From assembly GCA_965637545.1 (NCBI GenBank), contig OZ281501.1:806001-870000 (forward strand): a DNA stretch of 64,000 nt, read 5' to 3'. Positions 36,643-50,453 of the stretch are shown piece after piece (the first letter of the stretch is position 1; each line of letters opens with the position of its first letter). Origin of the DNA: Phallusia mammillata (lineage: Eukaryota). The notes under the pieces were generated by a model, which was given only the letters and a program-made list of their open reading frames with translations, did not search any database and was not told the origin of the DNA. The translations under genes and the position numbers were made by a program.

Positions 36643-38926
36643 TCAACAAACCTGCATTATAAGTAGGTCAGCTAGCTCCCCATGCAGTTTACGAACTTTT
36701 AACACCAAAGGTCGTAGAACCCGCGATGAAACAGATTGACGATGTGTGCGAGCGTACGCCTGCAAAAACTTCTCAAAATCCCGCAGAAATTCGATCATGG
36801 CTTCAATCGATAATTCCGGGTTTCCTGCCTGAGACAAAAACATTTGTTACGTCACAGTTTCATAAAGGAAGCTGTGAATTGTGACGTCATAATGGTTATT
36901 TATGTGACCTTATGATGGTGTCACAATTTACATGTTACATCACAGTCAAAATCACACATCTATTATTTCCCCATATTGTTAAACTTTCTACAATTTTCTT
37001 ACAAATTACAAAACAAACAAATTGTCATCATGGTGAAATGTAAATAGCTTCTCATGTCACAAATCAACGAACATTTTCCAACTTTTTAAACTCACGTTTT
37101 TCACTACAGAAAACAGGAAATGCTTTCTTGTTGACACGTAAAATCTGTTATTTGCAAGGGACCTAATTCAATCCAAAAATATTCCCCAAATGGCAAGCAA
37201 AGGGGCATTTCACTGTACAACATATTAGGGACAAAAATATTGGCGTTTTAGGTTTTAGAGAAGACATCCTCTACTCATTTAAGTTGTAGAGTCCTAATCA
37301 TGTTTTTGCCTTGACCGTCGGGAAAGACCGCCGACTATTTTGCACTCGGCAATGGAAATGAGTGCATATGCAACTGCAATCTGCGATAAGTTAAAATCGT
37401 CAACGCAAGATCCAACATTCCCAGATCTTTGTAACTCGGGTTTAACACAACCTATGGCAAATTTAAATCATCGCAAGCTTGTTTTTGTCCGGGACATTTT
37501 TTAAATTCTGAACCAAGGTTTTTTGTTTATGAAGCGATTTCGGGCGTGCCACTGTATCGGGGGATGATACTGTTATGCAAGCCTTGTAATCGTGATTGTA
37601 AGTGAGATAACAGATGGACATCAGCGCTTGCGGCATCGTCGCGCCTTTAACACTCTCAGCTTCCAAAGATCGCTACTGTCACACCGACTATTAAAGTCAG
37701 TTGTTTAAATCGGAAACTATACAGCATTGCTATTATCTACAATTTTTCGCATAATTGAGCACAGCACCGGGCCCATTGAAGGCATGAAACCGAATCTAGG
37801 TTTTACCGAAAGAAAATCTTTATTCCTTTGTTTATCGTGCACTGTACTAGTCGCATTCAGTGTTATTTACCCTGATGAAGACGACCTGTATATAGGACGT
37901 CGAAACGTCGGAATAAAATCACATTTGCCAGAAGAGCTCTTTAAACTTGATACTATGCCTGGCAGCAATAGCTTATACATAGAAAATCTTTATCTTTTAC
38001 AAACGTTTGGTTTTCCTAACTTCGAAAATATGTTCGTGGACATTTTACGAAACAACAAAGCTAGCCAAAAATTGACAAAAACAAAATACTTTACAAAATT
38101 ACTTGTCTTAGCTAACTGTGTTTTAACCATAATACTACAGAGATCGACACTTCGTGGACCAACATCTAACACAAGGGCTCCTTCATATTTTTATCCCACC
38201 TTCCACGTTCATATTATTCTTTCAAAATAGAGTGTTTATGACCGACATGCTTGTGCCAGCTAAAATTGAAAAATCACCAAGGTGTTAGCGGCTGTTACCC
38301 CGGGTGAAAAGCTTCAGTTTGGTGTTCTAAAGTCAATTGATTTATTTTGACTTATTGACATAAGCTCTTTTCAGCAATATAGGTTTTATACGTACACGAT
38401 ATGCAGTACAGTAAGTTTCCTATATTGAAAAACCGTTGTTTAAATTAAATCACATCCAAAACCTGTGTATACAAAACTCTTGACAAACTGAATGAACTGC
38501 CACATATTGTTTACTTGTTTGGCAACAACTGGTACATCAGTTCCTTATTCAAATAGAATCTATTTATACTCGGAGTTTCATTGTTATAACACTTACCGTG
38601 ATTCGCGTATGTTCGGATGCGCTCAGGTTTACTCCGTCAGAAATCCAAATCTCACGACTAAAAGTTCTCGCATTTCGCGATAAAATTGTCTTTAGAGCGG
38701 CAATGTCCCTTCTGGCTCGCTTGCACAAAGCACCAGCCGCGTGTTGAGATGAAACTCCGCGTTTTGTCCGCGACAACTCCATTTTGTTCGTGGACTCCTT
38801 AAAACTGGAGTGGCCGAGAACGTACGCTGCTGACGCAAAGGAGGTTGCTAAATACGCCAGAAGAAGAGAAGCGACGATCACTCTGCTCGGGTTCTCGATC
38901 AGTGACGCAGCGACAGGTATTCGCAT
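36643..38926 (-). CDS. Orphan secreted helical protein (cytokine-like or prohormone-like); C-terminus uncertain
   Basis: Exon 1 38926-38597 (110 codons) has a signal peptide, RTKR at residues 53-56 and a GTAAGT donor in phase 0. Exon 2 starts at 36828 after TTTTGTCTCAG in phase 0 and reads AGNPELSIEAMIEFLRDFEKFLQAYART...VRKLHGELADLLIMQ. It ends either at VC* (36643, AATAAA at 36577-36572) or at a GTTTGT donor after 36652. Confidence 0.7.
37862..37916 (+). ncRNA. Minimal type-I hammerhead ribozyme motif (Penelope-like variant)
   Basis: TTATTTACC-CTGATGA-A-GACG[ACCTGTATATAGGA]CGTC-GAAA-CGTC-GGAATAA: intact core, stem II, palindromic ACGT in place of stem III, GUC cleavage triplet. Confidence 0.72.
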
Positions 38927-39024
38927 CGTTTTCTGCGAAAGTTAAACCCACGTGGTTCGTAAGGTGCCTGGCTCTACCTGCTGCTGCCGTGCCCTGCCCA
39001 CTGGCATGAGTCTACTATGGAAGC

Positions 39025-39031
39025 TTATATA
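39025..39031 (-). promoter_or_regulatory. TATA box of the orphan secreted-protein gene
   Basis: TATATAA on the minus strand about 100 nt upstream of ATG 38926. Confidence 0.55.
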
Positions 39032-39847
39032 CGTTGGAACCGCTTTCGGTCTTGGTGTGTTTTAACTCTTTCTAACCGAATTTTCGGTTCCACGTAAATT
39101 TACAAGTTTTTAAATTATTGTTATGTTATGAGAACAGACTATTGCCGGGAATACACAATCTATATCGGGGACTGCTTTATATAACGGATCTGCCGCTTGC
39201 ATTTGTTGTTACATCACATGCATTACCCCCCAAGTTTACCCATTGCCAAGCATGTAAGGTCAAAGACATTTCTGTGCATCATAATTCTAAATCTGTCAAA
39301 AATACTCACAAATCGTCAAAAGGAAACAAACTCCCGACGGACATTTTCTTTTTATTTCCTGCTATCCTGCTTTGACCCGCCACCAACAGAGAGAGAAACT
39401 TGAGAGTGAGGGAGAGCAGCGAAATTATATCATTGAATCCGACTGAACGACGCGCCTGAAATGACTGAAAAACTTTGCTGACAGTCGTCGTCGCACGGCG
39501 GTTTGCCCCTGGGGTATGCAACAGGCCCTCTACACGCCGCAGCCAAAAACGTCGGCGGGAACGGTCAGTCGAAATATAGACGTGGTGTTTTCTTCCGTAA
39601 CGAGCGCCTCGGCGGCCTGTGCACGGGGATTGCGGCAATTTCAACCCGCCCCGAAAATGCCCGGATCGTGATATGTGCGATGAAATTGAAATCAATCGGT
39701 TCCTGGGAATAGCTCAGGGCGCTCCCTGCACAGCCAGTCGCATCAACTCGGAGATTAAAACCCCAAGGGCTGCAAATATTTTCCAAACTCTCCCCTAATT
39801 GTGTTAAGTTTCAAAACATGTGATGTGATGAATATTTAGCATGTGGA

Positions 39848-40091
39848 CAGTGGTGGGATTCAGTCGGTTCGCACCGGTTCTACAGAACCGTCTCACGAAA
39901 TTTTATGAGACCAGCGACCCGGTTAGCATTACTAATTACTGTCAATGGACTTTTTGCAACAAAACCGGCTGAAAAATATGACGTTTGTGATAGACCTGGC
40001 TGAAAAATATGACGTTTGTCATAGAACCGGCTGAAAAGTATGACGTTTGTGATAGAACCGGCTGACAAAAAAGAAATGAATCCCACTACTG
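39848..40091. mobile_element. MITE (family C) with internal ~30-bp tandem repeats
   Basis: TIR CAGTGGTGGGATTC...GAATCCCACTACTG; about 4 copies of GATAGAACCGGCTGAAAAATATGACGTTTGT; a second, decayed copy at about 25332-25484. Confidence 0.85.
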
Positions 40092-41576: not shown

Positions 41577-44500
41577 GGGTTAGGGTTAGAGCCTTGGAGT
41601 TAGGGTTAGGGTTAGAGATGGAGTTAGGGTTAAGGTATGTTGCGATATAGTTATGAAATTTCAACGTTATAGTTTTATGTAAAGTTGAAGTTGTGAAAAT
41701 CTGATGTAAAAACCATGGCATGGAATCAACACACATGACATCATGTTTGTAAGGTTAGGGTTAGAGCTAGGGTTAGGGTTAGGGCATATTGCGATAGTGA
41801 TGAAATTTTATCGTTGTAATTATATGTAATGGTAAAGTTGTGAAGATGTGTATGTGCATACCATGGTATGAAATCTGCCCAAATGACATTACGTTTGTAA
41901 GGTGAATGTATAGGCTTTTGGTTACTTAGGGTTAGAGCTAGGGTTATAACCCTAACCCTATAGGATTACAGCTATTTTTTACAGCGAGTTATGGTTAAAG
42001 CTATAGGCGTTGGGGTTAGGGTATCTGTCATATAATTTCAACGATGGGAAAATGTATAAAATTACCACCATAAAATTTCATCGCATGATAGTATTTTTAT
42101 CTGGTGAAGATAAGGTTTTCTGTTAGTTAGGGTTGGAGTTATTGAGTTAGGGTTAGGGTATATAGTTATGAAATTTTATCGATGTGATTTTATGTAATGT
42201 TAAAGTTATGAAAATGTGTAATATGTAAAAGCCATGGCATGAAATCAACATGCTTGACATCATGTTTGCAAGGTAAACGTTATAAGGCTTTTTGTTACTT
42301 AGGGTTAGAGTTGTTGAGTTAGGGTTAGGGTTACATATTTAGGGTATATCAAGAAATAACCGAGCTACTACGCTGCAAAATGGAAAAAAAATGTTTATAC
42401 CATGGCATGAAATTGACAAGATAAACTTTCATCACATAAAAGTATATATCTAAGTTGAGGGTTATGAGTTTTCGTTTGGTTAGGGTTGGTGCTATTGAGT
42501 TAGGGTTAGGGTTAGTGCTATGGAGTTAGGGTTAGGGTTGGTGCTATGGAGTTAGGGTTAGGGTATATCGCGATATAATCACCAAGTTATGAAAATTTAA
42601 GGCGTTAATACCATAGCATAAAATTACCACGATAAAGTTTTAACTCATGACAGTATTTCTATTAGGTGAGGTATCGTTTTTTTGGTAGTTGGGGTTGAAG
42701 CTATGGGGTTAGGGTTAGGGTTAGAGCTAGGGTTATAACCCTAACCCTATAGGATTACAGCTATTTTTTTCAGCGAGTTATGGTTAAAGCTATGGGTTTA
42801 GGGTATGTGCGATATAATTTCAACGTTGGGGAACTGTATAAAAATAACCACTGTAAAATTTCATCGCATGACAGTATGTTTATATGGTGAGGATGAGGTT
42901 TTTATTTGGTTAGGGTTAGAGCCTTATGCGGTTAGGGTTGTAGATTTAGGGTTATGGTATATCGAGAAATAACTAGGCTACTGCGCTGCAAAATGGATAA
43001 GATGTTCATGCTATGGCATGAAATTGACAAGTTAAACTTTCATCTCATTAAAGTATGGATCTAATTTGAGAGTTTGAGGTTTTCAGTTTGTTAGGTTAAA
43101 GCTATTGCGTTATAGGGTTAGGGTTGAATCTATGAAGTTAGGGCACATCGCGCTATATTTACAAAGTTATAAAAAGGTATGAGACGTAATTACTACAGCA
43201 AAAATTGTCCCGTTAAAATTTCATCGCATGGCAGTATGTTTATTAGGTGAGGTATCAGTTTTTGAGTAGTTAGGGTTAAAAGCTATGGAGTTAGGGTTAG
43301 GGATATGAAGATAGGGTTAGGGTTGGTGCTATTGAGTTAGGGTTAGAGCTATGGAGTTAGGGTTAGAGCTATGGAGTTAGGGTTAGGGTTCGATCTATTG
43401 AGTTAGGGTTAGAGCTATGGAGTTAGGGTTAGAGCTATGGAGTTAGGGTTAGGGTTGGATCTATTGAGTTAGGGTTAAAGCTATGGAGTTAGGGTTAGAG
43501 CTATGGAGTTAGGGTTAGGGTTGGATCTATTGAGTTAGGGTTAGAGCTATGGAGTTAGGGTTAGGGTTGGATCTATAAGTTAGGGTATATCGCGATATAT
43601 TTACAAAGTTATGAAAAAGTATAAGACCTAAATACCTTAGCATAAAATTATCCCTGTAAAATTTCATCACGTATGACATGTTTATTAGATGATCAGGTAT
43701 CAGTTTTTGAGTAGTTAGGGTTGAAGCTTATATGAACTTAGGGTTAGGGAATGTTATGGTATATGGACATATAAATTAATACAAGGTTGTGAAAATGTAT
43801 AATATGTGAATACTATGACATGAAATCAACACGAATGACAATATATTTGTAAGGTGAGGAATAGGCTTTTTGCTATTTAGGGTTAGAGGTAGAGTTATAA
43901 CCCTAACCCTATAGGATTACAGCTATTTTTTACAGCGAGTTATGGTTAAAGGTATGGAGTTAGGGTTAGGGTATGTGGCGATATAATTTCAACGTTGGGA
44001 AACTGTTTAAAATTACCACTATAAAATTTCATCGCATAACAGTATGTTTATAAATTGAAGGTAAGACTTTTTGTTAGTTAGGGTTAGAGCCAGAGAGGTA
44101 GGGTTTGGGGGTGTCTAAGAAATAACCCAGCTACTACGCTGCAAAATGAACAAGATGTTCACACAGTGGGATGAAATTGACAAGATACAATTTTATCACA
44201 TCAAAGTATGCAGGGTGAGGGTTAAGGTTTTCCTTCGGTTAGGGTAAAGCTGTAGAGTTAGGGTTAGGGTTGGAGCTATGGAGTTAGGGCATATCGCGAT
44301 ATATTTACAAAGGTATGAAAATGTTTACCCCATTAAAATTTATAATCACATATGATATGTTTATTAGGTGACAGGTGAGGTATCAGTTTGTGAGTAGTTA
44401 TAGGGTTGAAGCTATGGTATTAGGGTTAGGGTTGGACTTAGGGTTCTTGTAAGTTGTGAAAATGTATGTAATAAAAACCATGGCTTAAAATTGTCACGAT

Positions 44501-45040
44501 ACAATTTCATCGCATCGTAATATCATTGTGAGGGTTGTAGGATTAGGATTTATGTTAGTTAGGGTTAGTGCTATTAAATTAGGGTTAGGGTTAGGGTTTG
44601 GATTTTTAGGGTATTGCTATATTGCGATATAATTACAAATTTATAAAAATACTTGAGATGAAAATACTATAGCATGAAATTACCACCTTAAAATTTCGTC
44701 ACTTGACAAAATGTTTGTAAGGTGAGGGCAGGTTTGTACTTGATTAAGGGAGTAAGGGTTAGAAATAGAGTTAGGTTTGGAGCTAAAATTTTGTTTTCGA
44801 TTCGTTAGGGTAAAACTGTGGAGTTAGGGTTATAGGGTATATCGCGATATAATTACGGGGTTAGGGTATATCGCGATTAAAGTTGTGAAAATGTATAACA
44901 TGTAAATAACATAAATTACATTGCATGACACAACACTATAAAGATAGGGATATATAACTTTAGAGTTTTTTTTGGTTAGCTAGGGTTTGGAGCAGTAGAG
45001 CTAGAGTCAAAGTTGGGTTGATGTTGGGGTGAGGTTAGCA
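41577..45040 (+). repeat. Interstitial telomere-motif (TTAGGG) composite satellite with higher-order repeats
   Basis: Roughly 20 diverged monomers of about 140-200 bp. Each is a short TTAGGG/GAGCTATGGAG block plus an AT-rich core (ATATCGCGATAT...AAAGTTGTGAAAATG...CCATGGCATGAAATT...AATTTCATCGCATGAC...AAGGTGAGG). A 20/26-bp minisatellite GGTTAGAGCTATGGAGTTAG is expanded at about 43270-43585. Confidence 0.93.
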
Positions 45041-45315
45041 TACATTGCAATACAATTAGGCTACCTTCATATTAAAATTGCTAATTGCATGGCATGTTTT
45101 TTAGCCTTTTAGCTTAGTTTTGTTGGTCGGCGTTAGTTGGGGTTTGATTCAGTGTAAAAAAATCTGAGAAAATGTATGACACCCTGGCATAAAACCCAGA
45201 TGGTTTTAATTCTTGATAATTTAATGGCGAAATAACTCGAAACTTTGTTACCAACCTTGTCCATTTTTTTTTATTTTTTTTTACCAACCTTGCTCACAAG
45301 TAGGCTACAAAGTTA

Positions 45316-45463: not shown

Positions 45464-45962
45464 CAACTATTTAGTCTCAAACCCTATGAGCAGCCGTCGC
45501 TTAGGGTTGTTTGTGCAAAAGTGAATTGCGTGCAGCTGCCGGTAAGGTTACTGTCACAAATTTATTTTATTACGGTTTGTATGTATAATATGAATTTGTA
45601 ATGTAGAGATCGTGGTTTAAATTTGGTGAACTGTCTAACTTTTTTGTTACGGCTTTAGAAAATGAATCATTCGCATGTGAAATTTTTGATAAATTATTTG
45701 AATGTTTTCCAGTTTATGAGATTTTATTTCCTTGTGCTTTGGAAGTTCGTTGTTTTGAAGAAACACATTTTGACAACTTAGCCCACTACCTTTCAAAAAT
45801 AACTACTGTATAATTCATGTTTTTGTTTTAACTTTTACTTATTGTTCCTGTTTTTTTCCTTGTCGCACAGATTTAAGTTGTATCAAACTAAAACTGTGCT
45901 AGAAGAATTTTTGCAGTCAAGAATACATTCAATTGCTTTTAAGCTTCAATCAAGAGTTCCGC

Positions 45963-47596
45963 ATGAGTGATAACGTACTTAATCTGCAAAATTACGGTAA
46001 GTTATATTACATTTTATTTTAAAAACCTAACTTGTTACATTAGTTTGGCAAAAACATTTTCCACCTGGCATTGAGCAGTAGGAGTTGGAGTGAGGTAAAA
46101 ATATTTTCTGATTGACTTCTTTTATTAGAAGTTGTCCAACTGTGACTATGGACATTTAAATATCAGTTGGCGAAGTGGTAGCTGTTTCTTTGGAAGTGGT
46201 GTTATGTTCAATGGCAGATGTTGTATCAGACTCCCTACAATTGTGCAACACAGACATCAATATTTGTTATATCAGTCTGTTCACCTTAAACTGGACATAC
46301 TGTTGTTGTAACAATATTTAAAGAAAACTCAAGTCTTGCTGCAACCATTTAATTGCGTGAGGTTTTGTTTTAGATCCTTTTGCTGATGCAAGCAAAGGAA
46401 ATGATGCTGGAAGCCAAGGGTCTGTGATTCACATCAGAATTCAACAAAGAAACGGTCGAAAAACCTTGACCACTGTACAAGGGATTTCTGAAGATTATGA
46501 CAAGAAGAAAATTGTGAGAGCCTGCAAAAAGGCAAGAAACCATTACTGTTACACTTTTAATCATTTGACTAAATTCTTTATTTGCCACTCATTTAAACGG
46601 AAATAAATTGTAATGATAATTTGGGTAACCAATATTTACATGACGGGGTCAGTGAAAGGCCAAACATTGGCCATTGGGCCAGTGACTCGTTATTGCCGAT
46701 TTAAAGACCAGGAAAAAGGTGGTAATATGGAATGTCGCTGTTGGAGCAGCAGAACAAAACGAGGGAGTGCAAGAAAACAAAGGGGATAACATTGCAAAAA
46801 AACTAAATCTAGAACAATGATCATCATCTAGATTTTATTTAATTAACATGTTGCTGGCATTTTTTAGGAGTTTGCTTGTAATGGAACGGTGGTAGACCAC
46901 TCAGAGTATGGGGAAGTTTTGCAATTACAAGGTGACCAGAGGCAAAATATTGCTGAATTTTTACTGAATGTAAGTACATATGTTTGCTAGTAAATGGTTT
47001 TTACATTTTGTCCCTAAATTAGTCAATATTTACATTAAACCAGTATTTCTCAAACTGTGCGCCGCAACGCCCAAACTGTGTTGTCGCAACACCCAAACTC
47101 AAACTGTGCGTCGTTTTAATTTTCCAAGGGCATCGCAGAATAGTTCCGTTTCGCGCCTTTTTGTTGTTGTATCAATAAACTCAACTTTAATAATAAGTTT
47201 CCTCATTAACTTTTATTTGGTGGTCTGTCACAAATCTAGAAAACTTTTCCAGAGGCGTCGCAATAAAAAAAGTTTGAAAACCACTGCATTAAACAAATGA
47301 CTAAACCAGGGACATGTAGCATATCGCCTACGTCAGCTATTTATGTGAACTTTGTCATGTAGTTGATTGTTTTAGACTTTTCACTGTTAAATCGTAGGAA
47401 GTTGTTATTTGCACTGTTCCATTAGCTTTTTTGACATTGTATTACAAAGTAAAAGTTTGCCCAATCCTCTGTTTAGAAATGTTGTCTTCATGCTCCCCTG
47501 AAACCAATCATAAATTGCACCTTGTTTTGATGACATTTTTTTCTTTTCCAGGTTGGATTAGCGAAGAAGGAACAAGTTAAGATTCATGGATTTTAA
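45963..47596 (+). CDS. EIF1: Eukaryotic translation initiation factor 1 (SUI1)
   Basis: Exons 45963-45996, 46374-46531 (GC donor), 46868-46969 and 47552-47596 give MSDNVLNLQNYDPFADA...IHIRIQQRNGRKTLTTVQGI...KEFACNGTVV...LQGDQR...KIHGF*. A non-coding first exon ends near 45541 (GTAAGG donor). Confidence 0.97.
47041..47286. mobile_element. hAT-type MITE (family B) in an EIF1 intron
   Basis: TIR CAGTATTTCTCAAACT...AGTTTGAAAACCACTG with TSD CATTAAAC; homologous to 51801-52011. Confidence 0.9.
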
Positions 47597-48344
47597 GTGT
47601 CGCTCTGTTGTTGCTTGTACAACTGTAAAATGTGTTGCTTTTCCAATACAATTTGGTGATTTCAAAACGTTTTTTAAATGGACATGTTGTGCATACAAGG
47701 CGTAATTTTGCTTCTCGCGTTTTAAATCAGTTTTTGCTTTTGCTGTCCAAAATTTTCAATGTGTTACTTTTTGTGTTGGTAATGTGTGAAAACCAAAGTT
47801 GCTTCAGATTAGAGGAGCTGTTGACTTCTCCTGGTGGCAGAAATGTACAATCCGGTTTTTATGTAACCTGTTATCTTCCTGTGACACACAACAGAACAAT
47901 AAGTTTTTGCAATAGAAGTGTCAAAATTTTGCATTTTGTAATAACATTAGATAACATAACTCAGCCTATGTGGTTGTACTGTCATTTCATAGTAGGCTTT
48001 CTATGTAGGTGTTTGCAAAACAGTAAATCTAGGTTTCGGATCTTCCGCGGAGTTTAGTTAGCAGTGTTTTTTCAAAAAGTGGTTGAAAAGGGATTAAGTT
48101 TCTGCAACGTTTGTGCGTTGACTCCTACCCGTTTTGCTGGTTGCAAAATAACTGGTACGGTGCAATTGCAAACCGTGGGTGGCACTGCTTTTTATCTCTA
48201 TGTCAACATCTTAAAAACTTGTACAACCAGAAGATAACTGAAGGCAAGTACTGCAAACCAAACCCTGGGTTTAAGAGGTTTATGTAATGTAGACATTATT
48301 GAGAGGTAGTTCAAATCTACGGTATTGTCACGAACAGTCTACTC

Positions 48345-49256: not shown

Positions 49257-50453
49257 ATGTTTGGTCCACGATTTAATGAACAAAAACTAAAAGTCAACTT
49301 GGGTTTGGTTCAAACCCGACTTAAACTGATTGAGAAAAAGAAAACTGACCAAGCCCTTCGAGCAAGACCAGAAATTGCAGATTATGTCAAAAATGCAAAA
49401 ACGGATCGTGCTCGCGTCCGTGTGGAGCACATTATTCGAGAAGATTATCTAGTTGAAGCAATGGAGCTGGTCGAAATGTATGCTGATTTGCTAGCGGGAA
49501 GAATTGGGCTTATGAAAAGGTCCAAAGTACTTGAAGAAAGTCTCAAAACACCAATTTCAACCTTAATTTGGGCTGGCCCACGTCTTAGTCAATATTGTCA
49601 AGAGCTCACAACCGTTCAAAACATGCTTGGTGCGTATTATGGCAAGAAGTATGTGGAAGCGTGTATGTCAAATCAAGTTGGCACGGTGTGTGAAAGGGTC
49701 ATGACTAAAATGGATCCTTCGCCACCAAAAAAGATTCTTGTGGAACGGTATCTTATTGAAATTTGTAAAGCTTCAAATGTTGACTTTACACCCGATCCAA
49801 GAGTCATGGAAGAGGAGTTAGAAGGAAGTCGGCCCGCTATTGATACCGACTTCATGGACTTCAACAAGGACTTTCCAACGGGTGGTGGTGGCTCTTTTCC
49901 TGGTGGAAGTGGAGGTGGAGGGTACTCTGGTGGGGGAGGTAATGGCGGCGGCGGTGGCGGCGGTGGTGGCGGAGGGGGACAGGTTGACCCGATTCCATCT
50001 TTCAGTTATGCAGCTGCTGCTTCAGCTCAATACCAACAACCACAGGCTCCATACCAACAACCGCAGGCTCCATATAATCCTGCCCCAGTACAACCAAATA
50101 ACCTACCCCCATATTCTGCAACTGATCCCAACCAACAGGAAGAAACAAAACAAGCTCCTCCACTTCCTCACAAGGATCCTGCTGGTCCTGGAAAAGTTGA
50201 TCTGTCAAATGAACCAGAAGGTGTATCTGCTTCATTACCAAGTTACAACGATTCACTCAACGCTCCTGGCAGCAGTCGTCCAGTGGCAGCTCCACGCAGT
50301 GCCTCTCCAGGAATACCAAACCTGCCTTCAGTTCCAACTAATCTTCCTCATGGTAGCATACCCGGGCCGGATAATAATTCAACTGGTAACAATGATGATG
50401 TGGATTTTGATGACCTCTCAAGAAGGTTTGAAAACCTCAGGAAGAAAACCTAA
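49257..50453 (+). CDS. IST1: IST1 homolog (ESCRT-III-associated), single coding exon, 398 aa
   Basis: Ist1 domain (RLKLIEKKKT...ARVRVEHIIREDYLVEAME), MIM2-like PNLPSVPTNLP and C-terminal MIM1 DFDDLSRRFENLRKKT. Gly-rich and Pro/Gln-rich linker. Confidence 0.97.
   Translation: MFGPRFNEQKLKVNLGLVQTRLKLIEKKKTDQALRARPEIADYVKNAKTDRARVRVEHIIREDYLVEAMELVEMYADLLAGRIGLMKRSKVLEESLKTPISTLIWAGPRLSQYCQELTTVQNMLGAYYGKKYVEACMSNQVGTVCERVMTKMDPSPPKKILVERYLIEICKASNVDFTPDPRVMEEELEGSRPAIDTDFMDFNKDFPTGGGGSFPGGSGGGGYSGGGGNGGGGGGGGGGGGQVDPIPSFSYAAAASAQYQQPQAPYQQPQAPYNPAPVQPNNLPPYSATDPNQQEETKQAPPLPHKDPAGPGKVDLSNEPEGVSASLPSYNDSLNAPGSSRPVAAPRSASPGIPNLPSVPTNLPHGSIPGPDNNSTGNNDDVDFDDLSRRFENLRKKT

Follow-up and report, generated by a model that had tools for sequence, protein, structure and literature searches.

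A probable degenerate interstitial telomeric array, with higher-order repeat structure, beside EIF1 in Phallusia mammillata

The 64,000 nucleotides of Phallusia mammillata DNA analysed here (the window, G000:C8:806001-870000) lie within the 19.79-Mb contig C8 of a 240-Mb assembly, in which TTAGGG telomeres cap both ends of C8, as they do most large contigs. A 3.6-kb array of TTAGGG-laced repeats occupies the 6-kb gap between the plus-strand EIF1 gene and a divergent, spliced minus-strand transcript. It lies 0.85 Mb from the nearer C8 telomere, with its G-rich (+) strand oriented away from that telomere. A reading of the letters by themselves (the sequence-only reading) had placed these repeats about 400 bp from a housekeeping promoter and away from any chromosome end. 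Both points were borne out, since an RNA contig puts the first exon of EIF1 (45521-45541) 380-480 bp downstream of the end of the array, and the array is internal to C8. The principal landmarks, in window coordinates, are:

36652..39339, minus strand: spliced transcript divergent from EIF1, starting at about 39339 (RNA contigs)
41577..45140, plus strand (G-rich strand): the whole array, about 17-18 monomers, degenerate at its right end
45521..47910, plus strand: EIF1 (SUI1) gene (SUI1 match and spliced RNA contigs)
45521-45541, 45870-45995, 46373-46529, 46866-46969 and 47552-47910, plus strand: EIF1 exons (RNA contigs)
49257..50453, plus strand: IST1 gene, 99% identical to Phallusia mammillata IST1

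The RNA contig at 45521 carries a 12-letter loose end, which we take to be a cDNA adaptor and which would then mark the EIF1 start site. One EIF1 contig (X16) stops at the exon-2 acceptor (45870) and another (X20) has the short first exon, a difference that could reflect either trans-splicing or incomplete contigs. The single ORF scanned in the minus-strand transcript gave no Pfam family. High-copy dispersed elements with terminal inverted repeats lie on both sides of the EIF1 region (39848-40072 and 47000-47270), at a depth about 1000-fold over the flanks, and the former contains a 31-bp tandem repeat. Within the array itself there is no ORF over 74 codons, no tRNA was found, and an Rfam scan gave nothing over threshold (best E 0.27).

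Each monomer of the array combines a TTAGGG-rich block (G-block) with an AT-rich core. The cores, delimited by splitting the array at the G-blocks, measure 98-140 bp, and the ordinary monomer spacing ranges from 135 to 247 bp, to which the near-nucleosomal periodicity proposed earlier corresponds only loosely. The array holds 73 of the window's 84 plus-strand TTAGGG hexamers, arranged as 36 single, 17 double and 1 triple runs, so that the longest perfect run comprises 3 hexamers; it contains just 3 CCCTAA, and its GC skew of +0.43 to +0.52 gives the highest 1-kb bins across 264 kb, which agrees with the one-strand G-richness noted from the letters. It includes 19 double hexamers, which are otherwise rare inside the chromosomes of this genome: among the matches listed for C1 they make up 8 interstitial loci in the 36 Mb before the telomere. 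On the right the array fades out to about 45140-45200, where model scores are at the upper edge of the background.

Along the array the monomers follow the order a b H c d e f H g h i j k H l m n o p q r. Pairwise comparison of 18 cores gave a mean identity of 58%, against 50% for a shuffled control, and 73-83% between sisters of a class. A tree of 17 array cores and one solo core from elsewhere in the genome recovered A, C, E and F as groups, at bootstrap values of 90-100 (only E and one sub-pair being starred), with the right-edge monomers standing apart. Because the classes recur in order and are grouped by the tree, the higher-order unit is read as [A]-H-C-E-F. The classes thus behave as in a higher-order repeat array, sisters being closer to each other than neighbours are. 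The three old copies of the unit are 72-84% alike over 330-660 bp, and their markers are spaced 789 and 1162 bp apart, reproducing the earlier figures. The marker GAAATAAC is found in all three units, at 42353, 42966 and 44119, and the motif that follows it is exact at 42364 and 44130 and differs by one base at 42977, as expected from the marker pair first noticed. The three-level anatomy of G-blocks with a minisatellite, monomers and higher-order units is confirmed. Its parts are:

41577..41924, plus strand: left-edge pair of class-A monomers (a, b)
41924..42316, plus strand: 393-bp block (H-C-A) skipped by contigs in three of four DNA runs
41927..42004, plus strand: H copy 1 (78 bp), with palindrome TAGGGTTATAACCCTA, opening higher-order unit 1
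42022..42125, plus strand: class-C core; sisters at 42805-42908 and 43972-44076, 82-83% alike
42345..42478, plus strand: class-E core with the GAAATAAC marker; sisters at 42958-43089 and 44110-44237, 73-82% alike
42716..42793, plus strand: H copy 2, opening higher-order unit 2
43268..43586, plus strand: apparently young 20/20/26-bp (66-bp) minisatellite, an expansion of one G-block, with 20 TTAGGG
43878..43955, plus strand: H copy 3, opening higher-order unit 3

The minisatellite comprises 13.6 copies of a 20-bp period (43268-43564) and 4.5 copies of a 66-bp period that are 94% alike, and is read as young because of this likeness. Six monomers contain a perfect splice-donor-like AG-GTRAG (42664, 43245, 43852, 44059, 44373 and 44720), often followed by a T-rich AG within about 25 bases, with a density of 1.7 per kb in the array and 0.03 per kb in the remaining window. 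These sites are inherited from one ancestor and show no special conservation. An array of SL-RNA genes was considered for these monomers and dropped, because they differ by 17-50% and AG-GTRAG is kept no better than other columns.

The H unit departs from the ordinary monomers. All 3 CCCTAA of the array lie inside its 44-bp cores, and the plus G-strand resumes after each. In reverse complement H reads like a G-block, and it has short inverted repeats on its flanks, features that together suggest a micro-inversion; to judge from its letters, it is likely a micro-inverted G-block. The H copies differ from one another at 1/77, 3/78 and 4/78 positions, and the adjoining monomer at 19/115, 19/120 and 17/114 (Fisher p 4e-4, 0.01 and 0.04, for a boundary chosen after looking). 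The palindrome that the sequence-only reading had assigned to the monomers is present, yet ATATCGCGATAT is exact at 4 places only. The hairpin it had proposed did not hold up: ATGAAATT occurs at 7 places and AATTTCAT at 6, never both exact in the same monomer, and the two arms pair in the consensus only. For two ATGAAATT...AATTTCAT stretches the predicted folding is no stronger than that of shuffled sequence (z 0.02 and -0.94), and RNAalifold returned 0 pairs. The only stretch folding well above shuffles is H copy 2 (42716..42793; z -4.5).

Genome searches place the array at one locus. Exact-motif searches returned 7/7 and 4/4 matches at the array, a one-mismatch search 8/9, a further pattern 5/7 (against 9 control matches) and another 2/2 loci; of the 11 matches to a core pattern, 4 were at the array, 1 was a true solo core and 6 lacked a convincing model match. 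A search with the whole array recovered itself, telomeres and TTAGGG-type repeats, with 24 candidates scored. In four DNA runs from 3 studies, one of which may be the source of the assembly, all 30 bins across the locus were covered in every run, at flank-like depth save for one left-edge bin. The genome-wide copy-number check that had been envisaged thus yields a single locus at flank-level depth in 4/4 runs. The array is not a high-copy repeat, and the word satellite used for it at first was an overstatement. Its coverage in four DNA runs makes it unlikely that the array itself is a product of mis-assembly. The samples nevertheless differ structurally from the assembly. In 3/4 DNA runs contigs connect 41923 directly to 42317, the skipped 393-bp piece being present at about half depth, and all four runs contain two elements that the assembly lacks, namely a monomer and an E variant with a 5-bp deletion; the assembly's own junction at 41923 was not among the listed contig pieces. 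We read the haplotypes of the samples as differing by whole monomer blocks, on the basis of contigs short of full haplotypes.

With respect to known repeat classes, the array consists of the genome's own telomere repeat at an internal site, TTAGGG being found at contig ends and the array 0.85 Mb inside C8. It differs from several kinds of interstitial telomeric sequence (ITS): 1) short ITSs, which are 24-130 bp of nearly perfect repeats, have no counterpart in its single, double and triple runs; 2) fusion ITSs, with a head-to-head TTAGGG/CCCTAA polarity switch, are not matched by its 3 CCCTAA, all inside H cores; 3) heterochromatic ITSs or satellite DNA form large, high-copy blocks, and the array is 3.6 kb at one locus with flank-level depth. 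Alpha satellite is the familiar complex satellite with higher-order repeats. The array resembles such satellites in its diverged monomers of about 170 bp, its ordered classes and the placement of its most diverged copies at an edge, and differs in being confined to one locus of about 18 monomers in gene-dense DNA, with old units only 72-84% alike. PMC6800518 defines an ITS by 4 or more perfect telomere hexamers that share a strand and lie no more than 100 nt from each other. By this rule 264 kb contain 6 clusters, with 4-20 hexamers each, and every one of them belongs to the array. The closest likeness is to degenerate ITSs, those of C. elegans (PMC6800518) and the short, subtelomeric and fusion ITSs of human (PMC6410037), which have perfect and degenerate hexamers on one strand in a chromosome arm, are mixed with non-telomeric sequence and vary in length. 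The ITSs of C. elegans measure at most 1204 nt (PMC6800518), as against the 3.6 kb seen here, and the array further differs in that its hexamer runs stop at 3 and its monomers have 104-140-bp cores and are set in higher-order units. We place the array in a known class, that of degenerate interstitial telomeric arrays, as a member that has higher-order structure. Among openly searchable papers on telomeric repeats of ascidians, Phallusia or Ciona, no title or opening of an abstract among those listed describes this locus, which may nonetheless have been annotated before.

Few relatives of the array were found. A degenerate solo core, 88% alike over 49 bp (E 1.3e-7), lies mid-chromosome at C5:10.42 Mb, beside an apparent exon. 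Because this core was built into the core model R1, the score that R1 gives it is not independent. The count of one solo core is a lower bound. Eighteen other TTAGGG loci and the left end of C8 proved to be telomeres, a MITE, other elements or a 48-bp minisatellite, and among those other loci only L054 gave a clear core match. The G-block motif TTAGGGTTAGAG-N2-6-GGAGTTAGGG occurs 29 times at 3 loci only (control 0), namely 8 times in the array, 9 at C3:31.75 Mb and 12 at C8:19.66 Mb, all within 0.85 Mb of an end. The latter two loci are a TTAGGG-derived 48-bp minisatellite with shared flanks (L052:1811-5940, C3:31.751-31.755 Mb; L051:2210-4516, C8:19.657-19.659 Mb). On C3 it reaches about 90 copies, and the C8 copy is split by an inserted element with terminal inverted repeats. 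It has the G-block motif and a distal position in common with the array, and differs in its homogeneous 48-bp unit, the lack of an AT-rich core and flanks unlike those of the array. The link comes down to words of 12-14 bp and may be convergent.

Other TTAGGG-bearing repeats include a roughly 500-bp MITE, seen at 6 loci (L021, L055-L059). It has terminal inverted repeats and, between them, a (TTAGGG)n tract of variable length, and one copy (L056) has an apparent 8-bp target duplication. A complex TTAGGG-laced repeat on C1 (L019:4500-5000 and L020:4000-4500; 9.60 and 9.615 Mb) forms an inverted pair 14 kb apart, with an upstream flank common to both copies and an end adjoining CCGGAAGT, presumably an ETS site. 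Since the MITE and the C1 element also carry them, TTAGGG-laced repeats appear to arise often in this genome.

We think it probable that the array is a degenerate interstitial telomeric array that grew in place by unequal exchange and slippage, without a selected function. The seed would have been a TTAGGG-derived block with a core of about 120 bp, its G-block likely related to the 48-bp minisatellite of the two other distal sites. Duplication of this seed would have produced several monomers, which then came to differ as classes; part of one G-block would have been micro-inverted to give H, the block [A]-H-C-E-F would next have been triplicated, one G-block would recently have expanded as the 20/26-bp minisatellite, and whole monomer blocks would still be gained and lost. 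Amplification of ITSs via unequal crossing-over, conversion and slippage, with length polymorphism as the usual state, is described in PMC6410037. Against growth in place stand the near-invariant H beside a diverged monomer, the 73 perfect TTAGGG retained despite cores diverged by 17-50%, and the substitutions in one run. In a comparison covering three of the four runs (X1, X3 and X4), each time among the longest pieces, X4 had other letters at 13/1774 positions in the array vs 56/2288 in the flanks (p 2e-5), X3 at 14/2063 vs 13/1413 (p 0.44) and X1 at 4/1884 vs 14/2889 (p 0.15). The invariance of H and the low variation in X4 are weak hints of constraint, and could come from conversion, hairpin repair or local genealogy. 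As an ordinary ITS the array would document, tidily and on a small scale, the formation of higher-order repeats, and it would supply a model ascidian with a length marker.

Two other origins bear on the same comparisons. That the array is the relic of a subtelomeric block, which a move or an inversion brought to its place 0.85 Mb from the end and which later expanded, is a minor possibility: the restriction of the G-block motif to three distal loci, two of them a minisatellite with shared flanks, speaks for it, so that the relic-subtelomere idea raised earlier is half supported. Against it, a true subtelomeric satellite is absent throughout 264 kb and the orientation of the G-strand is away from the near telomere; moreover, the non-telomeric words shared with the C3 array are at most 14 bp and could be convergent decay, the flanks lack homology to either distal locus, and the solo core is mid-chromosomal. 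It seems very unlikely that the array represents the tandem repeats inside an old MITE or Helitron-like element, a non-autonomous transposon that would have lost its ends to decay. The solo core and the TTAGGG MITE at 6 loci lend it some colour, as do satellites known to derive from internal repeats of MITEs and Helitrons (Xstir, BIV160 and DINE-TR1; PMC6947457), with which the array shares tandem units with internal inverted repeats and a dispersed relative of the unit; unlike them it has no element ends, and no family of dispersed copies was found. The sequence-only reading had included a mobile element among its options, which is unsupported because the array ends lack a terminal inverted repeat or a 7-12-bp target duplication (old ends may have decayed) and the flanks are at single-copy depth. 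Furthermore, a search of limited sensitivity for dispersed copies with shared ends gave one solo core only, without shared flanks and possibly seeded by the array; 8 other pattern matches lacked a convincing model match, and the TTAGGG MITE has no homology to the array outside the hexamers.

A different proposition, compatible with growth in place as the origin, is that the array acts in cis, its spaced TTAGGG pairs binding telomere-repeat proteins or forming G4s or R-loops, so that it would serve EIF1 and the divergent gene as an enhancer, a boundary or an origin of replication. We regard this as unlikely. It would fit the position 380-480 bp from the first EIF1 exon amid divergent genes, the near-invariant H, the low variation in X4 and the concentration in the array of 57 of the window's 62 YTAGGGTTR sites, which we take to be TRF half-sites. 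When loops may extend to 12 nt the array has 4 G4 motifs, and with a limit of 7 nt it has none; G4Hunter reaches 1.2 or more in 1.8% of its windows vs 0.3% elsewhere, so that the predicted G4 potential is raised yet modest. Entire blocks are gained or lost between samples, and H is explicable by conversion or hairpin repair. A narrower version, in which spaced TTAGGG pairs and the thrice-kept inverted unit form a selected landing pad recruiting telomere proteins or G4s beside the EIF1 start, with length alleles as natural tuning, appears quite unlikely. Plant telo-boxes would be the counterpart of such a landing pad; if the reading were true, a translation-initiation gene would be coupled to telomere-factor supply in an animal version of them. 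If the array proved constrained and active on EIF1, the control of a housekeeping promoter by telomere repeats could readily be tested on it, because Phallusia embryos take reporter constructs and natural structural alleles exist. Published work points both ways: some human ITSs are occupied by TRF1/TRF2/RAP1, but TRF binding depends on ITS length and conservation (PMC6410037), and the longest perfect run here is 3 hexamers; C. elegans intergenic ITSs are enriched for enhancer states, whereas promoter states are depleted at ITSs (PMC6800518). Most improbable of all is a non-coding RNA locus, be it a lineage-specific miRNA cluster, a TERRA-like RNA or telomerase RNA. Its size and spacing recall the 4-kb, 25-miR cluster of Ciona (PMC2884542), H contains the template-like TAACCCTAACCC, and telomerase RNA was not found in Didemnum or the other tunicate genomes searched in PMC8704543. 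However, pre-miRNA-like windows number 13 and 4 of 367 on the two strands vs 3-24 in six control scans, repeated above-shuffle folding is limited to H-spanning windows, there is neither a consensus structure nor an Rfam match, and TAACCCTAACCC is present three times, in each case with adjoining sequence to which it can pair. The miRNA cluster was rejected on folding, there being no stable pre-miRNA hairpin per unit and no pre-miRNA excess over controls. Four RNA-like contig sets leave the array almost uncovered, which has no bearing on its expression.

A search for EIF1 near IST1 in metagenome contigs gave no match among 38 IST1 loci. In L074/L075 a degenerate CCCTAA-laced array at a contig end (L074:1-300) lies 4.3 kb upstream of a 65%-identical IST1 with 4.6 kb of upstream sequence. 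As a candidate syntenic counterpart this tract was taken as chance, because it is on the opposite strand, has no EIF1 and gives no core-model match. The IST1 coding region is intronless both in the window (49257-50453) and in L074/L075 (L074:4599-5732). Long perfect telomere tracts also lie inside scaffolds (L053:2159-5001 and L060), at C6:172 kb, beside an N gap, and C3:31.68 Mb, and are possibly scaffolding joins. The right end of C1 and the left end of C8 have in common a satellite next to the telomere (L026:8300-9078 and L027:2350-3300), in which GGGCAGG-rich blocks accompany an AT-rich core; it is unrelated to the array. Finally, a homogeneous 110-bp tandem repeat of 18 copies with 96% matches lies at C8:764966-766973 (L153-L154).
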